From NCBI GenBank assembly GCA_948525355.1, contig CAOSOP010000001.1:732-51769 (forward strand): 51,038 bases of DNA, in the 5' to 3' direction. Made by a program: the position numbers and the translations under genes. This stretch comes from an uncultured Bacilli bacterium. Its GTDB lineage: Bacteria; Bacillota_I; Bacilli_A; RFN20; CAG-288. Within the stretch, counting starts at the first letter, position 1. Each line of letters starts with the position of its first letter. The notes beneath the pieces are model-generated. The model was not told the origin of the DNA and searched no databases. It saw only the letters and a list, made by a program, of their open reading frames with translations. This document shows positions 3,892-33,457 of the stretch, one piece after another.

Positions 3892-4260
3892 TTAACGAGA
3901 GTTTTCAATCCACCATTCCTTATCTTTTATAATTGTCCCTCTGATTTCTGTTATTTCTGTTCCTTCTACATCACAAAGTGGGTAGCGATAAAAATCTAGA
4001 TGTTTGAACTCATCAGAAATTATTCTTTTTGCGTAATCTTCAGTTAGGCAATCATCTATTTCTTCTTTTGTCATTAATGCTAATTCTTCTTCTTTATGTA
4101 AAGTAAGAATTTGTGGTATATCGTATCCATAGCATAAGCAGATGTATTTATTTCTTTTTTCATCATATCCTACAACTCTTAGTGCTTTAATATCAAAGAA
4201 TGGATCAGCATTCTTAATAGGGATACTGTATACGAAATCGTTTATTTTAAATTTTTTCAT
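3892..4260 (-). CDS. Small cytosolic protein, paralog 1; candidate cognate immunity protein
   Basis: 122 aa with no signal peptide. It starts 8 nt after the stop of the 440-aa secreted protein. Two close paralogs lie at 5716-6087 and 6408-6782. I recognised no family. Confidence 0.5.
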   Translation of the reverse strand: MKKFKINDFVYSIPIKNADPFFDIKALRVVGYDEKRNKYICLCYGYDIPQILTLHKEEELALMTKEEIDDCLTEDYAKRIISDEFKHLDFYRYPLCDVEGTEITEIRGTIIKDKEWWIENSR

Positions 4261-4268
4261 AGTTATAC

Positions 4269-5591
4269 CTAAAACTTCGGACTTAGTGGATGAATTTCAC
4301 CGATTCCATCATCATTTGGAGTCCAATATAATAGACCGAAGAAACTATGTGTTTTATAGTAAGGGTCATCCGTAATTCTTTTTCCAATTTCATTATAGTT
4401 ATGAAAATGTTTAAAAGCATATTTTGGAAGATCTTTTTTGATAGCACTATTATATAGATGCAAATCTGGCTTATGAGATGTATATCCAGTACCTGCATTG
4501 ATTATAAGTGATCTAGCGTTATTTTGATACCATGTATATGAACTAAAACTTTTTATGTGTGTCTTGTTTTTTATACAAAATTCTTCTGAAACTGGTGTTG
4601 CTACTGCAATGTCTATATAATCTGTTTTACATTGCTTTATTAAATATATATCATCAGTTCTCCTCACTTCGGTTATAAATGCGCATTGTGCCTCATAATC
4701 TGTTGATGCAATTCGCTTAAAGTTAAATGTAATTCCATCAATCACGCTTCTACTTGAAATAACAGATTCTTCACCTTTAGCGACTGCATCACTAAAGAAT
4801 GATGTAATCCATTTGGCAAAGGCACCGAATTGTTCGACGAACCAATCGCGAATATCATTTATTACCGATTTAATCTCATCCCAATGTTGTACAATGATTA
4901 CTGTTATTGCAATTAGTGCTCCAACCGCAAGTGCAACAGCAATTACCCAACCAACAAATGGAATCCAAGAAGATGAAAGTGCAGTTGATAAAGCAGTGAC
5001 GCATCCGTTGAATGCGCTAATAACTGTTTGTGATAAATTAGCACCTAATAAGATTGCTGATAAGCCAGAAGCGACAGCTGCACTTTGGAGTTCAATAGGA
5101 CTTCTATGAGCATATCTAGGTCTAATATTTAAATTGCGATATCTAATTTCATTAAGGGTCGCATATCTATCAAATTCGTAATTCTGTTTTCTTAACTCGA
5201 TGACCTTATTTAATTCATCAGTAGTTAATTCTGCTTCAAAATTAGCTTGATAATCATGCATAACATCTATATACTTTGGTGCAACATAATTTGCGTCAAA
5301 TTCAGGAAGAGTAATTGTTTCTTTATCTATTACATTTAAGCCTGTTATATCAATGTAATCATTAAATTCAGTACTATAGTTTTCTAATGCTTTTTCAAAT
5401 ACTTCATTTGGATCATCAGTTTCAACTATATTTCTACTAGAAGCAGCAATTCTTTTAGTCAGATTTTTGACTTTCAAAGTAATTTGATCATTAATTTCTT
5501 CTAGTTCGTTAGCAACTGCAACAGACTTCATATTTGAAGTAATTAAGAACACACTACATACAAGCGATGAAAGTAAATATTTTAGTTTCAT
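4269..5591 (-). CDS. Secreted/membrane-associated protein with His-rich C-terminal domain; candidate polymorphic toxin
   Basis: 440 aa. Sec-type signal peptide (MKLKYLLSSLVCSVFLITSNMKSVAVA). Residues ~165-235 are Gly/Ala/Ser-rich and hydrophobic (..WIPFVGWVIAVALAVGALIAITVIIV). The C-terminal ~170 aa contain FKHFHNYNE...KTHSFFG. SD AGGAGG precedes the ATG, and a small cytosolic protein gene follows immediately. Confidence 0.45.
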   Translation of the reverse strand: MKLKYLLSSLVCSVFLITSNMKSVAVANELEEINDQITLKVKNLTKRIAASSRNIVETDDPNEVFEKALENYSTEFNDYIDITGLNVIDKETITLPEFDANYVAPKYIDVMHDYQANFEAELTTDELNKVIELRKQNYEFDRYATLNEIRYRNLNIRPRYAHRSPIELQSAAVASGLSAILLGANLSQTVISAFNGCVTALSTALSSSWIPFVGWVIAVALAVGALIAITVIIVQHWDEIKSVINDIRDWFVEQFGAFAKWITSFFSDAVAKGEESVISSRSVIDGITFNFKRIASTDYEAQCAFITEVRRTDDIYLIKQCKTDYIDIAVATPVSEEFCIKNKTHIKSFSSYTWYQNNARSLIINAGTGYTSHKPDLHLYNSAIKKDLPKYAFKHFHNYNEIGKRITDDPYYKTHSFFGLLYWTPNDDGIGEIHPLSPKF

Positions 5592-5715
5592 TTTATCCTC
5601 CTATTCTTGCTTATATCTTATCATATCTTAAAGTCATGTAATAATATATTTTGTAATATGTATTAACCCATATTTCTCATTATTTCTACAAGTTTTGTTT
5701 TATAAGATATTATTT

Positions 5716-6087
5716 TTAACGACTATGTTCAATCCACCATTCCTTATCTTTTATGATTGTTCCTCTAATACGTGTTATTTCTGTTCCTTCTACATCACAA
5801 AGTGGATAGCGATAAAAATCTAGATGTTTGAACTCATCAGAAATAAGGTCTTTTGCATATTCTTCAGATATATATTCATCTATTTCTTCTTTTGTCATTA
5901 ATGCTAGTTCTTCTTCTTTATTTAGAGTTAAAAGATAGGGGATAAAGTATACATCATAATGTAAGCAAATATATTTATTTCTTTTTTCATCATAGCCTAC
6001 AACTCTCAGTGGGTATATTGATGAATTACGTGATGCTTTTCTTGACGGCACACTATATACGAAATCGTTTATTTTAAATTTTTTCAT
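5716..6087 (-). CDS. Small cytosolic protein, paralog 2; candidate orphan immunity protein
   Basis: 123 aa, roughly 75-80% identical to paralogs 1 and 3. It is preceded by the same 8-nt junction and the last codons of a toxin-like remnant. Confidence 0.5.
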   Translation of the reverse strand: MKKFKINDFVYSVPSRKASRNSSIYPLRVVGYDEKRNKYICLHYDVYFIPYLLTLNKEEELALMTKEEIDEYISEEYAKDLISDEFKHLDFYRYPLCDVEGTEITRIRGTIIKDKEWWIEHSR

Positions 6088-6095
6088 AGTTATAC

Positions 6096-6257
6096 CTAAA
6101 ACTTCGGACTTAAAGGATGAATTTCATCAATTCCATTAATAATGTTTTTTCTTGAAATAACGGATATTTCTTCTTTTGTAATTGTAATAGATCTGGCATT
6201 TGAAGTACTAAAAAAATTGCTACGTGTGAGTGATAATAGTAAATACTTTGAATTCAT
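6096..6257 (-). pseudogene. Collapsed remnant of the 440-aa toxin-like gene (53 codons)
   Basis: Minus-strand ORF MNSKYLLLSLTRSNFFSTSNARSITITKEEISVISRKNIINGIDEIHPLSPKF. It retains the SD and start, a signal-peptide-like N-terminus, a match to GEESVISSRSVIDGI and the exact C-terminal EIHPLSPKF-stop of the full gene. The upstream DNA also matches 5592-5650. Confidence 0.65.
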
Positions 6258-6407
6258 TTTTCCTCCTATGAATAATATATTTTATCATATCTTAAAGTCT
6301 AATAATAAAGTATTTTTTTATAACTACACAATTTTTGAAAACTAATACGAGAATTATTATTTTATTTTAAGGATATAAGCAGCAAGCATTACAAAATAAG
6401 ATATTTA

Positions 6408-6782
6408 TCAACGGCTATGTTCAATCCACCACTGTTTATCCTTTATAATTGTTCCTCTAATTTCTGTTATTTCTGTTCCTTCAACATCACAAAGTGGATA
6501 GCGATAAAAATCTAGATGGTTAAACTCTTCAGAAATTAGTCTTATGGCGCGTTCTTCAGTTAGGCAATCATCTATCTCTTCTTTAGTCATTAATGCTAAT
6601 TCTTCTTCTTTATGTAAAGTTAAAAAATCTGGTGAAAAATCATATACATCATAATTTAAACAAATATATTTATTTCTTTTTTCATCATATCCTACAACTC
6701 TTAGCGGGTCAATACGCAAAAACAGATCATCATTCTTAATAGGGATACTATATACGAAATCGTTTATTTTAAATTTATTCAT
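6408..6782 (-). CDS. Small cytosolic protein, paralog 3; candidate orphan immunity protein
   Basis: 124 aa. It shares blocks with paralogs 1 and 2: KFKINDFVYS, LRVVGYDEKRNKYICL, KEEELALMTKEEID, HLDFYRYPLCDVEGTEIT.IRGTIIKDK.WWIE.SR. Confidence 0.5.
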   Translation of the reverse strand: MNKFKINDFVYSIPIKNDDLFLRIDPLRVVGYDEKRNKYICLNYDVYDFSPDFLTLHKEEELALMTKEEIDDCLTEERAIRLISEEFNHLDFYRYPLCDVEGTEITEIRGTIIKDKQWWIEHSR

Positions 6783-11818: not shown

Positions 11819-13492
11819 ATGAAGCTTAAGAAAACATTTATACCACTTGTTTTACCACTTTTAATCCTCACTTCTTGTAATGACAAAGATAGTTTCAAGT
11901 ATGAAGGTGTTATCAGTGATATAAGAGTGGCAGAAGTCGGCACTACTCATACAGTCAGTGGAGTAGTTGTAAAGCATGTCTACACCGGACAGTCGACCCC
12001 TTACATCACAGGATTTATGTTAGCTAATGAATCTGGATGTATCTACGTCTGGGGTGAAACAGTTGCCAAAACTGTAAAAGTTGGCGAAAAAGTTAAGGTT
12101 GAAGGAAAGAAAGCCTATTATGTTCCTCAAACTGATGAAGGTGCAGCAGCAGCGAGCGGATATAAAGGTCAACTCCAATTAACTAATCCAGTATTAATTG
12201 AAAATATTGGTGGAGAACATGATATTCCTTCAAAGGCGATAACGAGCATTGATAATATTAATGAAGTCACTCGTCACGCTGTAAACGATGATATATCTAA
12301 TAATATCTATCGTGCGATTGGTCGCGTAACTAAGACCATCGGTGGTGATTATACCAACTACTATTTGTATGACCGCAATAGAGAGGATGCAATTAGTTTT
12401 TATACACAGTCAAATGGTAAAGACTATGCATGGTTAGAGCCATATGTTGATAAATATGTCGATATGACATTCATCGCAATAAATGCTAAACCTGGAAATG
12501 CTTTGTGGAGAGGTTTGCCAGTATTAGTCAATGATGACTCGATTACAATCAGCAATGAAGATGAAGCAAAATACGCTGCTGAACGTGCACTAAAGACCTT
12601 GCTTGATTCTTATTCTGATGAAACAAAAGTTTCTGTTAAAAATACCGATGAACTTCTTGAAGGTGTTAAACTAAGTTATTCTTCTAAGAGTGAACTTGTC
12701 AGTATTAGTGAAACTACTGATGGATTCGATATCAACTTTAAAAAGCCAAGCACAGAAACAGAAGTTGAAGTAGAAATAACTGCTTCTTATAAAGGCGCAA
12801 GTTCAAAAGTGATTAAAAAGATAAAACTCGGTGTAGAAGTTAAACATCAAGCCATATCGATCAGTGAAGCTTTAAGCAAAGAAACTGGTACTGAAGTTAT
12901 TATCGAAGGTATTCTTTCTCGTAAGACTTATAAGAGTGGTACCGATGATCCATTAGGTGGATTTATCATTGATAGCACTGGTTCAATAGTCGTCTATAAT
13001 GATGCTCCATATATGGCAAGTTTAGCAAATGCTACTGAAGGAAATAAGGTCATGCTCAAAGGTACTATCGATAGATATATATCAACTAATACTGCTGAAA
13101 GTGGATATACTGGTGATGTCCAACTTAGAAATACTGAACTTCTATTCGTCGATGGTGCAAATAATCCTATTCCAAGTGAAGCGATAGAAGAGAAGACTGT
13201 TGAATGGATACAAAGTCAACCTGCAACCAATAATATTTCTTCAAAAGTATTTAAAGTTACAGCCAAAATAATTAAATCAACAGGTTATGCAACATCATAT
13301 AGTTTAAAGGATCCAAATAACCTCGATAAATCCTTATCAGTATACTCACAAAGAAGTGGTTCTGACTTTTCTTGGTTAGATCCATATGCTGATCAAGTGG
13401 TAACATTATATGTCGGTGTTCAAAATCTTCAATTAAGAAGTGGATCACCTAACTGGAGATGTTGCCCAATTCAAATAATAAGCGCTAATTAA
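11819..13492 (+). CDS. Lipoprotein with internally duplicated OB-fold-like modules
   Basis: Signal peptide plus lipobox LILTSC. Two repeats of a module pair, e.g. GYKGQLQLTNPVLIENIGGEHDIPSKAI versus GYTGDVQLRNTELLFVDGANNPIPSEAI, and SFYTQSNGKDYAWLEPYVDKYV versus SVYSQRSGSDFSWLDPYADQVV. Confidence 0.6.
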   Translation: MKLKKTFIPLVLPLLILTSCNDKDSFKYEGVISDIRVAEVGTTHTVSGVVVKHVYTGQSTPYITGFMLANESGCIYVWGETVAKTVKVGEKVKVEGKKAYYVPQTDEGAAAASGYKGQLQLTNPVLIENIGGEHDIPSKAITSIDNINEVTRHAVNDDISNNIYRAIGRVTKTIGGDYTNYYLYDRNREDAISFYTQSNGKDYAWLEPYVDKYVDMTFIAINAKPGNALWRGLPVLVNDDSITISNEDEAKYAAERALKTLLDSYSDETKVSVKNTDELLEGVKLSYSSKSELVSISETTDGFDINFKKPSTETEVEVEITASYKGASSKVIKKIKLGVEVKHQAISISEALSKETGTEVIIEGILSRKTYKSGTDDPLGGFIIDSTGSIVVYNDAPYMASLANATEGNKVMLKGTIDRYISTNTAESGYTGDVQLRNTELLFVDGANNPIPSEAIEEKTVEWIQSQPATNNISSKVFKVTAKIIKSTGYATSYSLKDPNNLDKSLSVYSQRSGSDFSWLDPYADQVVTLYVGVQNLQLRSGSPNWRCCPIQIISAN

Positions 13493-18604: not shown

Positions 18605-20402
18605 GGGAAGAGAAGTCGATCTATCTTATATTAAGTCATGTTCAAATGAAGAACTTCATGACTTAGCTTTTTTGCTTCGCGAAAAAATCATTGAAACCGT
18701 CGCTTCTACTGGTGGTCATCTTTCGAGCAATCTTGGAACGGTCGAATTGACCTTAGGATTAGCAAAAGTCTTTGATTTAGATAAGGACCAAGTTATCTTT
18801 GATGTAGGTCATCAAACATATGCATATAAAATAATCACGGGTAGAGATCTAAGCAGTTTAAGAAAAAAAGATGGTGTCTCACCATTTTCTTCAACTAATG
18901 AATCAAAGTATGACATCATCGATAACGGCCATTCATCAACATCGCTTTCATATGCTCTAGCGATAGCTGAAATGAAAAAGGCTCATGGTGATGACTCATT
19001 TACCATTGCTTTTATCGGCGATGGAAGCATCACAAATGGCCTTTCGTTTGAGGCATTAAATGAAATCGGTGCAAGAAAAGATTTAAATCTAATCATTGTT
19101 TTAAATGACAACGGGATGAGCATATCCAAAGCTACTGGTTCACTATCTAAACAATTTTTAAAACTACGACATAGTAGATTCTACCTTAAAAGAGTCTTGG
19201 CTTTTAGAAAGCTTGGAAAGATCAAAGGTTTTGGTTGGCTGTATAAATTCTTCCGTCACATTAAGAATTTTTTCAAGCACATCATCGTTCGAGACAATCT
19301 ATTTGAAAGTTTAAACATCCCTTATAATGGTCCGTTTGATGGTAATAAAATAAAGGAAGTTAAAACTGCCTTAGAGTTTGCTAAAAACGTCAAGGGACCG
19401 ATCATTCTTCACTTTAAAACGGTTAAGGGAAAAGGATATGAATTAGCACAAGATGATGAAGTAGGACACTGGCATGGAATTGAACCATTCGATATTAAAA
19501 CAGGTAAACTTATCAAAGAATTCACCGAAGATTATTCCTATTATGCGAGTAGAGTAATATATAACATGTTGGTCGAAGATGAAAAAACATATCTTATATG
19601 TCCAGCGATGATTCATGGATCTTACCTTGAACAATGTTTTTTAGACTATCGAGAGAGGACATTTGATGTTGGAATCGCCGAGGAGCATGCGATAGTTTAT
19701 GGTGCTGCGCTTTCGCTTTGTCATTATCATCCGATAATCTCCATATATTCGACATTTTTACAAAGGAGTTATGATGAATTGATTCACGACTTATGTCGAA
19801 ATAAAAATGGCTCTATTGTCTTTATTGATCGAGCTGGGCTTATTGGAAAAGATGGTCCTTCTCATCAAGGAATATATGATGTTTCCTATTTAAAAACGAT
19901 CCCAAATACCTATATATTTCATCCATATTCCAAAGAAGATTTAGATGTTATTTTGGCTAGAAAGAATGAAATATATGAAAGTAAAGTCAACCTCTTTGTC
20001 CGACTGCCAAAAGAAAAAATAATCAGTGATATATCTGACTATAATCGAATTAATGGTGCTGATACTTTGATAATCAGTGTTGGTAATTTAGGTGTTGGTC
20101 TGTTTAAAGAATTGAATGGTTTTGATACATTACTAATAAAGCAAATCCATCCTCTAGAAGAAGAGCAGTTAAAATTCATTCTTCAATACAAAAATATCAT
20201 TCTCTATGATCCTTATTCAACAAATCTCGGCCTAGAATCTTCAATCGCTCACTTTTTAGCTTTAAATAGTTATCATGGTAATTATAAAGCTTATTCACTG
20301 CCTGTCTGTTATATCGAGAGCATGAGAATCGACGAACAGCTTGAAAAATATGAGCTTGATATAGAAACGATGAAGATAAAAATAGTGAATAATGCAGATT
20401 AG
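18594..20402 (+). CDS. dxs: 1-deoxy-D-xylulose-5-phosphate synthase
   Basis: GGHLSSNLGTVELT, FDVGHQTYAYKIITGR, GHSSTSLSYA and IGDGSITNG (TPP-binding). GTG start with GAGGAGG upstream. Confidence 0.9.
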   Translation: MEYKGREVDLSYIKSCSNEELHDLAFLLREKIIETVASTGGHLSSNLGTVELTLGLAKVFDLDKDQVIFDVGHQTYAYKIITGRDLSSLRKKDGVSPFSSTNESKYDIIDNGHSSTSLSYALAIAEMKKAHGDDSFTIAFIGDGSITNGLSFEALNEIGARKDLNLIIVLNDNGMSISKATGSLSKQFLKLRHSRFYLKRVLAFRKLGKIKGFGWLYKFFRHIKNFFKHIIVRDNLFESLNIPYNGPFDGNKIKEVKTALEFAKNVKGPIILHFKTVKGKGYELAQDDEVGHWHGIEPFDIKTGKLIKEFTEDYSYYASRVIYNMLVEDEKTYLICPAMIHGSYLEQCFLDYRERTFDVGIAEEHAIVYGAALSLCHYHPIISIYSTFLQRSYDELIHDLCRNKNGSIVFIDRAGLIGKDGPSHQGIYDVSYLKTIPNTYIFHPYSKEDLDVILARKNEIYESKVNLFVRLPKEKIISDISDYNRINGADTLIISVGNLGVGLFKELNGFDTLLIKQIHPLEEEQLKFILQYKNIILYDPYSTNLGLESSIAHFLALNSYHGNYKAYSLPVCYIESMRIDEQLEKYELDIETMKIKIVNNAD

Positions 20403-20440
20403 TATTTTTCTAGTAAATATTTAGTATTAATTTAGTTAAG
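20397..20440 (+). repeat. Phased-TAGT element, copy A (4 cores at 11-bp spacing)
   Basis: gatTAGTatttttcTAGTaaatattTAGTattaattTAGTtaag, with TAGT at 20400, 20411, 20422 and 20433. It ends 18 nt before a -35 box. Confidence 0.7.
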
Positions 20441-20457: not shown

Positions 20458-20485
20458 TTGTAAAAAATTATATAAGGAATATAAT
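20458..20485 (+). promoter_or_regulatory. Putative promoter of the PII-like/antiporter operon
   Basis: TTGTAA-16 nt-TATAAT. Confidence 0.45.
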
Positions 20486-23032: not shown

Positions 23033-24673
23033 ATGTTAAAACACCTTCACATTAAAAACTATATCTTAATCGATGAAATCGATATTGAATTTGACGATGG
23101 TCTTAACATCATCTATGGAGAAACTGGAGCGGGAAAATCAATCCTCGTCTCAGCATTAAATCTTTTAAAAGGTCAAAGAACCTCATTTGATCATATTCTT
23201 GATGAGTCAAAGAAGGCCTTGATAGAAGCAACATTTATTTTAACTGATGATTTTATCAAAACTCATCCACTACTTAAGGATTATTTAGATTCTAATGAAT
23301 TGATCATCTCTCGCTCACTCCTTCCATCGAAGACTTCGCAGATACGAATAAATGGTGAATTAATAACTTTAAGTGAACTTGAAGAAATAGCAAAGGATGT
23401 CATTGATATAACATCATCTGGTTCATCTTTTTTGCTTCGAACTAATGAATATCAGAAGAATTTATTAGATAAATACATTGTCAGCCAAATTGGTCGTAAG
23501 TCATATGATGATTATAGTGCTAAATATGATGAGTATTTAAAGGCGATTAAAGCTAAAGAAGAGTATTTAACTTATTTAAGAACTAATGATATCGATAGCA
23601 TTAGATTTAAACTAGAGAAACTTTCAAAGTATAATATCAAAGACAACGAATACGAAGATTTAAAAGAAGAGGCTATTGAAGCAGAGAAGTATTCAAAAAA
23701 TCTCGCAGCCTATAGCAATTTTGAGGCTTTGGATAACGATGAATCCTTTCATGACATAATGTATAAACTGACTAAGTGTTTTAACGAAATAGATGATGAA
23801 GATTCACAAGAGTTGATATCATATATCGATGAAATTCGCGAAAGAGTATCTCATTACGCCTCAAAATGTGGGGAAGAAGAAAAGTATTTACAAAGAGTTG
23901 ATTACATCAATTCGCGTATTTTTGAACTGCAACCTTTGATCAGAGAATATGAATCAAGTAATGCAGTAATCCAAACTATAGATGAATTGACAAGTAGACT
24001 AGATGAAGTGACAAACTCTGAGGATCATATAAAGAGTTTAGATAAAAAAGTCGAAGCTAAAAGAGCAGAGTGTTATAAATTAGCTAAAGAACTATCATCT
24101 ATTAGAAAAGAATATGCGAAAAAAATCGATGAATATGTTCAGTATGAAATGAAAGGACTCTCATTAAAAGAAGATGGATTCAAAATTGAATTTACTGAAA
24201 AAGAATTATCTAGCAGCGGAATTGATGAAATCGAAATGTTGGTTTGTTTAAACAAAGGAATGGGATTTAAACCTCTATGTCAAACCGCTTCTTTCGGTGA
24301 GACTAGCCGCCTTCTAATCGCCTTAATTGCTAGCTTAAATAAACTAGCACCGATAGATACTTTGATATTAGATGAAGTTGATACAGGTGTTAGTGGTAAA
24401 ATTGGCGTTAGCGTTGCTAAAAAACTTATTGAAATATCGAAGGAATCGATGGTTATTGCCATATCGCACCTTCCACCAGTTATCGCTTCTGGTGATAGTT
24501 TTTATCGTGTGTATAAAGAAGATGAAAACGAGAAGACCAGTACTCATATCAATAAAATGAGCAGAGAAGAGGCGTTAAAAGATTTAGCAATAATTTTAAG
24601 TGGTAAGGATGATGATCAAAAGGCTTATTCGTTAGCTGAGAGTTTAGTTGAGGAAGTTCACACTAAAAACTAA
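23033..24673 (+). CDS. recN: DNA repair protein RecN
   Basis: N-terminal Walker A GETGAGKSIL, a long coiled-coil middle region, and a C-terminal SGGE-like FGETSRL plus LILDEVDTGVSG. Confidence 0.9.
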   Translation: MLKHLHIKNYILIDEIDIEFDDGLNIIYGETGAGKSILVSALNLLKGQRTSFDHILDESKKALIEATFILTDDFIKTHPLLKDYLDSNELIISRSLLPSKTSQIRINGELITLSELEEIAKDVIDITSSGSSFLLRTNEYQKNLLDKYIVSQIGRKSYDDYSAKYDEYLKAIKAKEEYLTYLRTNDIDSIRFKLEKLSKYNIKDNEYEDLKEEAIEAEKYSKNLAAYSNFEALDNDESFHDIMYKLTKCFNEIDDEDSQELISYIDEIRERVSHYASKCGEEEKYLQRVDYINSRIFELQPLIREYESSNAVIQTIDELTSRLDEVTNSEDHIKSLDKKVEAKRAECYKLAKELSSIRKEYAKKIDEYVQYEMKGLSLKEDGFKIEFTEKELSSSGIDEIEMLVCLNKGMGFKPLCQTASFGETSRLLIALIASLNKLAPIDTLILDEVDTGVSGKIGVSVAKKLIEISKESMVIAISHLPPVIASGDSFYRVYKEDENEKTSTHINKMSREEALKDLAIILSGKDDDQKAYSLAESLVEEVHTKN

Positions 24674-24712
24674 CTAATATAGTACTAAATATCTACTAAT
24701 AAATTACTAGAA
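24670..24712 (-). repeat. Phased-TAGT element, copy C (reverse orientation)
   Basis: ACTA (reverse complement of TAGT) at 24673, 24684, 24695 and 24706, exactly 11 bp apart. It lies between recN and spoIVB. Confidence 0.65.
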
Positions 24713-26408: not shown

Positions 26409-27569
26409 ATGAAACTGATTGCTCATATAGATTTAAATGCTTTTTTTGTTCAAGTAGAGGAATTAAAGGATCCAAGTTTAAAGACCAAGTTCGTCGCCGT
26501 TGGTGGAAATAGCAGCCGAAGTGTTGTTTGCTCAGCTAATTATTTAGCGCGTAAAAGAGGTGTTCATTCAGGAATGTCGATAAAAAAAGCGAAAGAATTA
26601 TGCCCAGGCATAGTTATTTTAGATGGGCACTATGGATTATATAGTGAATATTCACACCGTTTCTTCGATTATCTACGAAAGATATTTAATCGTATCATGC
26701 AGACTTCTATCGATGAATGCTACATCGATATAACTGATTTTACTGATAAAGAGCATGCTAGAGACTTTTTAAGAGATTTACAGATAGATCTATTTAAAGA
26801 TACAGATTTAAAATGTTCAATTGGCTGTGGACCGAATAAATTCTTGGCAAAGATGGGTTCAGATTATCAAAAGCCGATGGGTTTGACGATGATTTTTAAA
26901 GAAGATGTTGAAAGAATTCTCTGGCCAATACCTATCGGTGATATGTATGGAATAGGAAAAAAGACTGCTCCGACTTTAATAAGTCTAGGCGTTAAGACTA
27001 TCGGTGATTTAGCAAATACTTTGGATACAAAAGTAATGAAAATTCTTGGAAGCATGTTTTTATATCACAAGCAACATGCGATGGGGGAAGGAAACGATGA
27101 GTTAAACTATGAGCACTTTGACCCTAAAAGTGTTTCAGCCGCTCGAACTTTTTTAGAAGATACTAGTGATGAAGAAGAACTTTCAAATATGATAATCAAG
27201 CTATCTAAGCAGGTAAGCAAGGAGTTGATTAAATATAAGAAAACTTCTAAATGTGTTGTCGTAACTTTCAGAACTGCAGATTTTGTCACTAATTCTAAGA
27301 GAAAGCAATTTGATACATATGAAAATGATGCTGCTAAAATCGCTTCTCGTGCACTGCAGATATTTGAAACTTATTATAAATATGAGCCGCTCAGACTTAT
27401 CGGCGTAGGCGTGAGTGATGTGATTAATACATTTGATGCGACTGAACAAATGAATATTTACATGATTAAAAAAGAAGAAAAGAGCGCAGTTAAAGAAGAG
27501 CAGAGAAAAGAAACAAGTGATGGAGGATATGAAAATCGCTTTCATATTTTAGATGATGAAGATATCTGA
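26409..27569 (+). CDS. dinB: DNA polymerase IV (Y-family)
   Basis: IAHIDLNAFFVQVE, SIDECYIDIT and GPNKFLAKMGSDYQKP motifs. Confidence 0.9.
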   Translation: MKLIAHIDLNAFFVQVEELKDPSLKTKFVAVGGNSSRSVVCSANYLARKRGVHSGMSIKKAKELCPGIVILDGHYGLYSEYSHRFFDYLRKIFNRIMQTSIDECYIDITDFTDKEHARDFLRDLQIDLFKDTDLKCSIGCGPNKFLAKMGSDYQKPMGLTMIFKEDVERILWPIPIGDMYGIGKKTAPTLISLGVKTIGDLANTLDTKVMKILGSMFLYHKQHAMGEGNDELNYEHFDPKSVSAARTFLEDTSDEEELSNMIIKLSKQVSKELIKYKKTSKCVVVTFRTADFVTNSKRKQFDTYENDAAKIASRALQIFETYYKYEPLRLIGVGVSDVINTFDATEQMNIYMIKKEEKSAVKEEQRKETSDGGYENRFHILDDEDI

Positions 27570-28434
27570 TGTAGCTAGTGAATACTTAACCTACCTCGTA
27601 GTTGAAAAAGGCGATGTCCAAAATACTATCAATACATATAAGGAAGACTTAACTCAATTTATCGATTTAATTAAAGATAAAGATGTCGAGGACTTATCGA
27701 TTGATGATATCTACGATTTCATGAAACATCTTTCTAATACGAATAAAAAAACAAGCACGATAATAAGAAGAACGACGACGATCAGGGGATTTTATCTTTT
27801 TTTAAATCGCGAAAATTATATCGATGTGCCATTAAATGGTTTAAGACTACCAAAGAGTGAATCACACCTTCCTTCAGTGTTATCGTTAGAAGAAGTCGAT
27901 GCTTTATTTGATGCGATTGGAAATAAAAAAGATGGAGAAATCAGGGATCGTGCGATGTTTGAGTGCATGTATGCTTCCGGCCTTAGAGTTAGTGAACTAC
28001 TTACCTTAGAACTAGGTAATATCAATTTTAAATCAGGTTATATTAGGATTAGAGGAAAGGGAAATAAAGAAAGAATAATCCCTATCGGTGAATATGCTTT
28101 GTACTACTTACAAGATTACATCGATCGAGTTAGAAAATATAATCCCAATAAAAAGAGCAAGTACGTTTTTTTAAATAGAAGTGGCGAGATTATCTCAAGA
28201 CAATATTTCTTTAAAATGGTTAAAAAATATGCCACACGTGCTAATATTGATGCTCAGATATCACCGCATACTTTAAGACATAGTTTTGCAACCCATCTTA
28301 TTGAAAACGGTGCAAACTTAAAGGAAGTTCAAGAAATGCTTGGTCATAGTAAAATTGAGACAACACAAATATATACTCACCTCTCGACCAAAAGAATTCT
28401 ATCCGCCTACGATGCCTTTATGAAGAAGATTTGA
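27553..28434 (+). CDS. xerD: Tyrosine recombinase XerD-like
   Basis: Catalytic blocks GLRVSEL, HTLRHSFATHLIENGANLKEVQEMLGHSKIETTQIYTHL. It lies upstream of deoB, as ripX does in B. subtilis. Confidence 0.75.
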   Translation: MMKISDVASEYLTYLVVEKGDVQNTINTYKEDLTQFIDLIKDKDVEDLSIDDIYDFMKHLSNTNKKTSTIIRRTTTIRGFYLFLNRENYIDVPLNGLRLPKSESHLPSVLSLEEVDALFDAIGNKKDGEIRDRAMFECMYASGLRVSELLTLELGNINFKSGYIRIRGKGNKERIIPIGEYALYYLQDYIDRVRKYNPNKKSKYVFLNRSGEIISRQYFFKMVKKYATRANIDAQISPHTLRHSFATHLIENGANLKEVQEMLGHSKIETTQIYTHLSTKRILSAYDAFMKKI

Positions 28435-30726: not shown

Positions 30727-31512
30727 ATGAAAACAAAAAAGAACCTTTATACAAAGATATTCAACTCTAATTTTTTCTACACTGGCATCGGAATAATACT
30801 TCTCATCATATCATATATCATCCTTTCAACGAGTTTAAAAACGGCGCTTGTACCTAAAATAGATAAGATTATTTTTTCCATGGGTGAATTATTAAAAGAG
30901 AAGTCATTTTATAAAAACTTTTTCACCACTATATTTAAGTTATTATTTACTACAACCTTTACATTTATTTTTGCGGTTGTTCTTGCGCTTATCAGCGCTA
31001 ACTTTAAAAGGTTTGTAGGAATCATCAAACCATTTATCGTCGTGCTAAAATCATTTCCTACTATATGTATACTTTTAATTCTAATATCAATAACAAAGTT
31101 TAGCGAACACATCGTTTTGTTTTTGGTCGTTTTTCCTATCGTCTATGAAGGACAACTTGAAAGAAGTCAAACCATAATAAAGCAATACGAGTATGATTTA
31201 AAGCTTGATGGAATAACTAGATGGAATAGAGTAGTCCATATCATTCTTCCTTTGTCTTATAAAGAATTCATCATCCTTCTGCTCCAATCCGTCGGTTTAG
31301 GATTTAAATCATTAATCATGGCTGAAGTGGTAACTGGCTCAAGCACAAAGCTTGGGATTGGAAACTTTTTAAACTCTGCCTATATTAATTCTAACTACAA
31401 TATGATGTTTGCGATAGCATTTTATACATTGATATTTATCATCGTCATCGACTGCATATTAGAGTATCTTAAATACCGTTTAAGTGGTAAAGAAGAGGGG
31501 TTAATAAGCTGA
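30727..31512 (+). CDS. ABC transporter permease (binding-protein-dependent type)
   Basis: 261 aa with about 6 TM helices and an EAA-like loop LKLDGITRWNRVVHIILPLS. No ATPase gene is adjacent. Confidence 0.6.
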   Translation: MKTKKNLYTKIFNSNFFYTGIGIILLIISYIILSTSLKTALVPKIDKIIFSMGELLKEKSFYKNFFTTIFKLLFTTTFTFIFAVVLALISANFKRFVGIIKPFIVVLKSFPTICILLILISITKFSEHIVLFLVVFPIVYEGQLERSQTIIKQYEYDLKLDGITRWNRVVHIILPLSYKEFIILLLQSVGLGFKSLIMAEVVTGSSTKLGIGNFLNSAYINSNYNMMFAIAFYTLIFIIVIDCILEYLKYRLSGKEEGLIS

Positions 31513-31550
31513 TTAGTAGTTTTCTAGTACTAAGTTAGTAGTAAATTGAT
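31511..31550 (+). repeat. Phased-TAGT element, copy B
   Basis: gatTAGTagttttcTAGTactaagtTAGTagtaaattgat, with TAGT at 31514, 31525 and 31536; the fourth core is degenerate. Its first 19 nt are near-identical to copy A. Confidence 0.6.
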
Positions 31551-31798
31551 ATATATTTTTGGTTGATAAGTACTGCTTATAAAAATTGGTCGACAATTAG
31601 CGACATCGATAAAAGTGCCTATTTAAAGGATGTTTTTATATATTAGTTAACATAATAGAGATTATACGAAGTTATATATAATCAACATTTTTAGTTACTA
31701 ACTGCTATATTTCATATTAAAAGTGTATATTAGTGCATTGTAATCAAACTATATACCTTGTTTTTTAGATCCTATGCTCTACACTTCTTAGCCGCATT

Positions 31799-31827
31799 AA
31801 AAAAGAGGTCAAGAGCTTTGACCTCTT
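31799..31827 (-). terminator. Intrinsic terminator of mgtE
   Basis: Minus strand AAGAGGTCAA-agctc-TTGACCTCTT followed by TTTTTT. Confidence 0.75.
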
Positions 31828-33239: not shown

Positions 33240-33280
33240 GCTTCACCTCCATAAAATAAATGCAAGTGACCAAAGCAGAA

Positions 33281-33346
33281 CTAAAATACTCTAGTGGTGC
33301 TAGGTCGATAAATAAAACTATCTATATCACATAACGAGTCGTCCAT
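33281..33346 (-). CDS. Candidate 21-codon upstream ORF in the mgtE leader
   Basis: AAGGAGG-7 nt-ATG, encoding MDDSLCDIDSFIYRPSTTRVF-stop. It ends 41 nt before the mgtE ATG. Confidence 0.3.
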   Translation of the reverse strand: MDDSLCDIDSFIYRPSTTRVF

Positions 33347-33412
33347 AACACCACCTCCTTTCGTAAAGGATATCACAGTTAATGAAAATGAGCAATAAAA
33401 AAAATTTAGTAT

Positions 33413-33457
33413 CAATAACTAAATTAATACTAAATCATCACTAATAAACTACTAATT
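33413..33457 (-). repeat. Phased-TAGT element, copy D (same orientation as mgtE, upstream of its leader)
   Basis: ACTA on the plus strand at 33418, 33429, 33440 and 33451, 11 bp apart. It shares the 20-mer ATTTAGTATTAATTTAGTTA with copy A. Confidence 0.7.

Follow-up and report, generated by a model that had tools for sequence, protein, structure and literature searches.

The sequence analyzed here (the window) is a stretch of 51,038 nt, with 32% GC, from an uncultured Bacilli bacterium (assembly GCA_948525355.1, contig CAOSOP010000001.1), and contains four short arrays of direct TTAGTA repeats, designated A to D, one of them close to dif, the site of the XerC and XerD recombinases. From left to right, the genes run from mraZ-rsmH to tex, nusB, xseA, xseB and dxs, followed by array A, genes for a PII-like protein, a Na+/H+ exchanger and a membrane protein, recN, array C, the gene for an S55 (SpoIVB-like) peptidase, dinB, xerD, deoB, genes for a lipoprotein and an ABC permease, and array B. 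Beyond dif, and on the opposite strand, there are mgtE, array D, mtnN, rsfS, nadD-yqeK, yqeH, genes for a HAD phosphatase and a sigma factor, parC, parE, plsY and efp.

The dif site (31645-31672, - strand) was spotted by eye and then by arm-wise scoring, and is a canonical 28 bp site, with XerC arm ACTTCGTATAA, spacer TCTCTA and XerD arm TTATGTTAACT. A search of the window with the B. subtilis dif 28-mer returned no match with up to three mismatches; the site belongs to a widely conserved dif family that a pattern scan recovered in many phyla. It lies in the gap where the ABC permease gene and mgtE converge, 400 bp from the maximum of the cumulative G-C curve (32046). The initial annotation described this gap as empty apart from array B, but it contains both dif and an intrinsic-type terminator-like hairpin (31803-31827, - strand), 3′ of mgtE and between this gene and dif. 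The GC skew was positive to the left of dif and negative to its right, with genes converging on the site, in 9/9 species with dif. The canonical dif, the convergence of the genes and the nearby G-C maximum therefore indicate that the window spans the replication terminus. A xerD-type tyrosine recombinase gene (27553-28434, + strand) is kept at ca. 3-4 kb from dif in all related loci.

The four elements of ca. 44 nt with TAGT cores phased at 11 bp were found where the initial annotation had placed them. Array A (20397-20440, + strand) consists of four YTAGTA units in 11-bp phase, with TAGT cores at 20400, 20411, 20422 and 20433; its first TAG is the stop codon of dxs, and it lies 11.2 kb to the left of dif and points toward it. 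Array B (31511-31551, + strand) begins immediately past the TGA with which the ABC permease gene ends and, as previously noted, has three strict units in phase (cores at 31514, 31525 and 31536), plus a degenerate fourth, TTGATA; its hexamers are 131, 120 and 109 nt from dif. Array C (24659-24712, - strand) is antisense to both recN and the S55 (SpoIVB-like) peptidase gene; at its 3′ end it runs, in antisense, over the final codons (12 nt) of recN. Array D (33413-33457, - strand), with four cores within 33418-33454, starts 10 nt past the mtnN stop, 1.75 kb to the right of dif, also pointing toward it. The attribution of four TAGT cores to each element thus holds for A and D but not for C, which has five (within 24662-24709), and the proposal that all four start at or near a stop codon holds for A, B and D, and not for C. 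A typical array has three to five units and often closes with a weaker one, T-GTA.

The pattern TAGT-N7-TAGT-N7-TAGT occurs eight times in the window, vs. 0.02 expected from dinucleotide-preserving shuffles, and a relaxed scan accepting at least 15 of 18 hexamer positions, i.e. three mismatches, returned only the loci of A to D, vs. a null mean of 0.43. No further chain of at least three units, and only one stray pair, was found in the 51 kb. As the initial annotation had reported, an exact 20-mer is common to arrays A and D, and B matches A over a 19-mer except at one position; all four arrays are also present in near-identical strains. Because of the eight matches vs. 0.02 expected, and because the relaxed scan gives only these four loci, the arrays are real and discrete, far beyond chance.

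To the left of dif, array B is followed by a DnaA-box-like 9-mer (31561-31569, + strand), the degenerate GGTTGATAA (family consensus KGTGGAWAA), situated 84 nt from the XerD arm. This arrangement was compared in 18 related species, eight of them picked blind to the presence of arrays, with distances measured from the first base of the XerD arm. All 18 possess a three-part module composed of a TTAGTA array, a DnaA-box-like KGTGGAWAA sequence and dif. The hexamers fall within 1 nt of a register of 109/120/131/142 in 15/18 species, and are 2-3 nt off in the other three (loci L009, L103 and L368; numbers preceded by L denote loci from other species). The box starts at 95 ± 1 nt in ten species and at 83-84 nt in four, a step of one 11-bp turn. 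In an alignment of ten species, conservation was confined to three blocks, namely the cores of the first two hexamers, the box and dif. Identity was 100% in the TAGTA and AGTA cores of the dif-proximal array and 50-90% in the spacer columns, and the DNA between array, box and dif could not be aligned. Because the cores are invariant and the spacers drift across species, selection appears to act on the hexamers. This is consistent with the proposal of the initial annotation that phasing by one helical turn aligns a protein on one DNA face. As in sites of the cer/psi type, the candidate protein-binding DNA of the module keeps a constrained distance to the XerCD core. Since spacing and helical phase are kept while the intervening sequence drifts, the comparison argues for a physical relation between the binders of array and box and the XerCD-dif complex, with array B as the invariant member of the family. 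The finding of DnaA boxes beside dif was unexpected. A perfect DnaA box (TGTGGATAA) was present in L116 (1793-1801), L165 and L369 (about 13171-13179), and extra copies of the box were found near dif in L369, L163 and L218, in some species on both sides of dif.

The distribution of the arrays was examined by scanning one genome per GTDB species with the pattern YTAGTA-N5-YTAGTR-N5-TTAGTA, which identified at least 120 loci; the matches listed formed three groups. One group contains chance perfect tandem repeats of 11-mers in many taxa. Another is a separate family from Bacteroidales/Paludibacteraceae with near-perfect GATTAGTATGT or GATTAGTAGGT repeats, in 3-7 copies, in longer intergenic regions and many per genome (L005, L011, L016, L027, L055, L068, L071 and ca. 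40 other loci); in the metagenome-assembled genome (MAG) CAKUUM01, with arrays of this type, the flanks are also shared, e.g. CGTGTACTTGTCGGGTTAAGTGTATGTGAT. In spite of the common TTAGTA core, we rejected them as members of the same family, because they have no dif nearby, different flanks and near-perfect repeats. The third group comprises, among the matches listed, 26 loci from AT-rich MAGs labeled Bacilli, Erysipelotrichaceae or Mollicutes, in which, as in the window, the hexamer is kept and the 5-nt spacers vary from unit to unit. In 117 units from 27 loci, the TAGT core of which is fixed by the search pattern itself, the preceding position was T in 86% (T(-1)) and A(+4) was found in 90%, the spacers being merely A/T-rich. 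A scan of viral contigs with the array pattern returned mostly perfect 11-mer tandem repeats of unrelated sequence and was uninformative.

All 36 arrays examined are intergenic, most of them at the 3′ ends of genes, and many begin in, or a few nucleotides after, the stop codon of the 5′ gene. In the 33 cases with a gene called 5′ of the array, 25 arrays were co-oriented with that gene and eight were not; also eight arrays had a stop codon on one side and an intrinsic-terminator hairpin on the other. The proximity to stop codons follows in part from the motif itself, because TTAGTA contains TAG on one strand and TAA on the other, and three units spaced at 11 nt close the six frames; therefore, no open reading frame (ORF) reads through an array. 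The genes flanking the 26 loci are unrelated housekeeping genes (glyS|dnaG, aspS|tkt, lepA, plsY, deoB, dinB, dxs, nrdE|nrdF, eno, khpA and udk|degV). Downstream start codons lay at ca. 2 to 178 nt from the array; in many cases there was no gene downstream, the array being in a convergent gap or between stop codon and terminator.

Among the matches listed, 14/26 of the loci selected by their arrays are syntenic with the window, and arrays recur at the same gene junctions across species: xseB|dxs, after recN, glyS|dnaG and after plsY. The glyS|dnaG loci are placed near the terminus by inference only, directly for L063 and by orthology for L110, L120 and L122. In MAG RUG14596, the aspS|tkt and glyS|dnaG matches are ca. 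30 kb apart on one contig and bracket the position where synteny predicts dif. Five loci (L100, L009, L116, L103 and the window) contain dif and an array at 102-125 bp from its XerD arm, pointing at dif; L116 has a second array across dif, which, as array D in the window, follows mtnN. In the converse scan, with loci selected by the dif pattern and considering the matches listed, ca. 100 dif loci from other phyla had no array by dif, as was also the case for two relatives of 25-26% GC, L154 and L159, whereas the clade loci L163, L165, L212 and L218, together with L015 from the array scan, carried an array of two or three units at that position. As judged from this contrast, the dif-proximal array is specific to this lineage.

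The array-blind sample was obtained through homologs with 71-79% identity to the DeoB of the window, taking ca. 10 kb at each side, and comprised eight further species. In all eight (8/8), dif occupied the convergent junction, with an array of the same orientation 95-130 bp to the left and a KGTGGAWAA 9-mer in between. An array also fills the xseB|dxs intercistronic gap in 6/8 of these species, and likewise in L009, L163 and L165, while an antisense array immediately after recN, the equivalent of array C, was found in L368, L369 and L377. L369, the only relative in the sample to share the dxs|PII-like junction, has no counterpart of array A there, and the window lacks the xseB|dxs array, having one after dxs instead of before. 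Individual array sites therefore turn over, and the dif-proximal array does not. From these comparisons, the arrays appear to form a lineage-specific set in uncultured gut and rumen Bacilli, concentrated within a few tens of kb around the terminus.

Several features of the junctions carrying arrays deserve description. At xseB|dxs, the array supplies the stop codon of xseB and ends 2-16 nt before the ATG of dxs (L366, 2264-2305; L370, 5954-5986; L372, 5938-5970; L374, 5939-5971; L368, 4109-4149), and in several species there is no Shine-Dalgarno sequence between the array and this ATG. In many clade members, the gene immediately preceding the dif-proximal array is a PemK/MazF-like ORF (PF02452) with an N-terminal extension of ca. 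50 aa (L163, 6290-6847; L165, 1013-1576; L218, 245-829; L015, 82-690; L056, 5276-5815; L366, 13642-14190; L375, 13023-13553); we saw no obvious antitoxin gene for it, and it is absent from the window.

The arrays are probably protein-binding sites clustered at the replication terminus, and we infer the protein, its binding and its function from their layout and conservation. Our favored interpretation is that arrays A to D would be binding sites for one sequence-specific protein and that the dif-proximal array plus the box would constitute an accessory or architectural arm of XerCD-dif, a proposal that we consider about equally likely to hold or to fail. One protomer might sit on each YTAGTA hexamer, head to tail on one face of the helix; array B and the DnaA-box-like 9-mer would then make up an arm of fixed geometry on the XerD side of the chromosomal dif, which could control or position the resolution of chromosome dimers at the end of replication, and the same protein would also bind arrays A, C and D, elsewhere in the terminus region. 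A more specific version, which we put forward only tentatively, is a helically fixed nucleoprotein arm made of a protein filament on the hexamers and of DnaA, or another reader of the 9-mer, as a chromosomal counterpart of the accessory sequences of plasmids. Since array placement seems to avoid promoters, a structural role fits better than a regulatory one.

The closest parallels to such an arm are cer, bound by ArgR and PepA, and psi, bound by ArcA and PepA, where ca. 100-180 bp of protein-binding DNA lie beside a XerC/XerD core at a constrained distance and render recombination FtsK-independent and resolution-selective; ArcA is moreover an OmpR-family winged-helix regulator that reads 11-bp-phased direct repeats. 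The module described here shares with them predicted protein-binding DNA at a constrained distance from the Xer core, but it is chromosomal and on the XerD side, whereas cer and psi are on plasmids and their accessory sequences on the XerC side. Furthermore, its motifs are TTAGTA hexamers and a DnaA-box-like 9-mer, the motifs of ArgR and ArcA not having been searched for, and, unlike in cer and psi, arrays of this hexamer are also present at distances of kilobases from dif. The arrays resemble as well those of plasmid centromeres and iteron origins: parC of R1 has two sets of five 11-bp repeats bound by ParR, the bind locus of pMV158 RepB has three 11-bp repeats, and iteron origins pair direct repeats of the 11-bp type with a DnaA box. 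Three to five direct repeats with an 11-bp period are common to all of these, the cooperative binding of a small protein being a property of the known systems; in contrast, the arrays are chromosomal, at the terminus, with no par or rep genes adjacent, and only a 6-bp core, not the whole 11-mer, is conserved. We found nothing relevant in the literature on TTAGTA direct repeats or on dif together with a DnaA box. No described system matches, and the architecture of array plus box at dif is new to the literature searched.

Several observations weigh against the proposal of an accessory arm. Part of the fixed spacing may reflect the common descent of the 18 related species and not selection, and the module is on the side of dif opposite to that of the accessory sequences of cer and psi. 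A role at dif does not explain the arrays inside operons (xseB|dxs, nrdE|nrdF), and the co-orientation of ca. 75% of the arrays with the upstream gene (25 vs. 8) could point to a function linked to transcription or RNA. The enrichment at the terminus rests on the matches listed and on fragments of 8-21 kb, not on a complete genome, and at least eight array loci (eno, lepA, nrdEF, udk|degV and others) have no placement relative to dif. Finally, no specific DNA-binding protein was found among the window ORFs or the array neighbors scanned; the nearby candidates (three 123-aa paralogs, the PII-like protein and the PemK-like ORF beside dif) were not convincing DNA binders.

The arrays could instead mark the terminus with no direct link to Xer, either as polar fork barriers or as non-polar sites for organizing the region or unloading SMC, which we regard as unlikely. 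Among the systems of these two kinds, the Ter site of Tus is a single 23-bp asymmetric site and matS, read by MatP in the Ter macrodomain of E. coli, is a 13-bp palindrome, while the XerD-binding sites of B. subtilis resemble a dif half-site. Only a small group of bacteria is known to have replication fork traps, which are lineage-restricted and convergently evolved (PMC10331603, PMC13220808), and the Ter sites of RTP in B. subtilis, of 32 bp with two imperfect inverted repeats, number nine over ca. 10% of the chromosome (PMC13220808). According to the account of Karaboja et al. (2021) given in PMC13220808, the XerD-binding sites of B. subtilis unload SMC. A terminus mark would agree with the clustering around dif, with the apparently low number of arrays per genome, with the inherent polarity of direct repeats and with the fact that arrays face each other across dif in the window (B and D) and in L116 (a and b). 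Like Ter sites, the arrays are a small lineage-specific set of inherently asymmetric sites around dif, and, as with matS and the XerD-binding sites, the motif is confined to the terminus region and its nearest sites flank dif. Nevertheless, the arrays are made of three to five direct hexamers, not of a pair of inverted repeats or a 23-bp site, and their orientations do not form the two opposed groups that let forks into the terminus but not out: array C (kept antisense after recN in the window, L368, L369 and L377), L116c and the aspS|tkt and plsY arrays point away from dif, and in the window a strict polar barrier would leave the 24.7-31.5 kb region unreplicated. A strict polar fork trap was thus ruled out by conserved arrays oriented away from dif on the same arm as those pointing toward it. 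A right-side array near enough to make a facing pair was present in only 2/18 species, and neither version accounts for the fixed distance of hexamers and box to dif. Phased direct repeats and a fixed distance to dif, both found here, are features of neither matS nor the XerD-binding sites. No RTP, Tus or MatP family match was found among the ORFs scanned; for rtp and tus, genes that typically lie next to a site, the search covered Pfam and NCBIfam families in the window ORFs and array neighbors. Two other functions based on the motif were discarded. A guide of the KOPS/SRS type would be a frequent short motif, skewed by strand toward dif, and this skew is lacking, the forward to reverse counts of TTAGTA outside the arrays being 9:10 to the left of dif and 12:6 to its right, and a DnaA-trio reading of TAGTAG was ruled out by reasoning, since a period of 11 nt breaks the 3-nt register.

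Alternatively, a global transcription factor, e.g. an OmpR/PhoB-family response regulator, might use the arrays as operators, with the dif-proximal site as one more target or co-opted, and this we consider quite improbable. The initial annotation proposed operators of this type, and the spacing stands: direct hexamer repeats at ca. 11 bp from center to center, as hexamer-N5-hexamer in arrays of two to five, often with effectively four units, are the layout of the boxes of PhoP, PhoB, ArcA and WalR. The consistent promoter position expected of such operators, overlapping the -35 or just upstream of it, and a coherent regulon are missing, and the arrays cluster at the terminus and dif. Array A does lie, as had been indicated, upstream of the -35 of the operon for the PII-like protein and the Na+/H+ exchanger, by 17 nt, the promoter (20458-20485, + strand, TTGTAA-16-TATAAT) being a sigma-70-like consensus match only; array D overlaps a promoter-like match upstream of mgtE (33463-33434, - strand, TTGACA-18-GATGAT), other arrays are directly 5′ of the start codons of dxs and dnaG, and ArcA is both a regulator and an accessory factor of psi. 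But the distances to start codons vary from ca. 2 to 178 nt, many arrays lack a downstream gene, a regulon would not concentrate at the terminus, and there is no functional theme among the flanking genes. The ion-homeostasis regulon suggested initially is therefore removed: the genes flanking the 26 loci of other species are unrelated housekeeping genes, the arrays are at 3′ ends and around dif, and L369 has no array A counterpart at its dxs|PII-like junction. No response-regulator gene was found among the window ORFs scanned, and the TTAGTA core is not known to match any OmpR/PhoB-family box.

An effect at the RNA level, with UUAGUA repeats in 3′ untranslated or intercistronic regions acting through an RNA-binding protein or on translation termination, reinitiation or mRNA stability, seems very improbable to us. 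It would make sense of the 25/33 arrays in sense with the upstream gene, often starting from or right after its stop codon, of the eight between stop codon and terminator, of the stop codon that three units put in every frame, on both strands, and of the xseB|dxs array, which fills the intercistronic gap before a dxs gene that often has no Shine-Dalgarno sequence. This proximity to stop codons is, as explained above, partly a consequence of the arrays closing all six frames, and the conserved antisense arrays after recN, at aspS|tkt and at nrdE|nrdF do not fit; besides, 11 nt is the period of the DNA helix and no rule for RNA, and the fixed spacing from dif and the clustering at the terminus would have no RNA explanation. 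It is likewise very improbable that the arrays are a selfish, mobile or recombinogenic short repeat, also considered in the initial annotation, or neutral debris of tandem repeats. The exact 20-mer of A and D and the 19-mer of A and B with its mismatch would agree with such a repeat, arrays occur at boundaries of variable content (dxs|PII-NaH, ABC genes|dif and mgtE|mtnN), and in the window species the array is after dxs, not before. Against this, the arrays have neither terminal inverted repeats nor target duplications, and transposase genes are absent; the copies are not near-identical, as those of palindromic or inverted MITE/REP-like repeats are, only the cores being conserved; unlike the chance matches in viruses and other phyla, they are not perfect tandem repeats; and species with protein identities of only 30-70% carry arrays at the same junctions, so that positions, variable in MITE/REP-like repeats, are kept across species and the sequence outside the cores is not.

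Other features of the window are as follows. The mgtE leader, between array D and the mgtE start (178 nt, 33240-33412), and the dif gap were compared with Rfam, with no M-box or other family at the gathering threshold and none at E ≤ 1, which rules out an M-box or other RNA family at either place. On the - strand at 3892-6782 there are three paralogous ORFs of 122-124 aa (3892-4260, 5716-6087 and 6408-6782), interleaved with the gene for a 440-aa protein (4269-5591) with an N-terminal hydrophobic segment; none of the four products had a Pfam match, and the arrangement is reminiscent of a polymorphic toxin/immunity cassette. L366 (6948-7778) and L375 (7038-7835) carry spo0A between the S55 (SpoIVB-like) peptidase gene and dinB, whereas the window has the peptidase gene and no spo0A there.

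To our knowledge, terminus-specific sequence systems have been described in very few lineages (Tus-Ter, RTP-Ter, MatP-matS and the XerD sites of B. subtilis), and chromosomal dif is generally thought to need no accessory DNA. The array, of 33-55 bp, offers a concrete bait for finding its binding protein, and the module is a simple signature by which the terminus can be recognized in fragmented MAGs from this clade. The module spans at least 18 uncultured gut and rumen species, and a conserved array plus DnaA box beside dif would represent a new way to organize or control the end of the chromosome cycle; if the arm exists as proposed, DnaA or the state of the cell cycle could be coupled through it to dimer resolution or replication termination.

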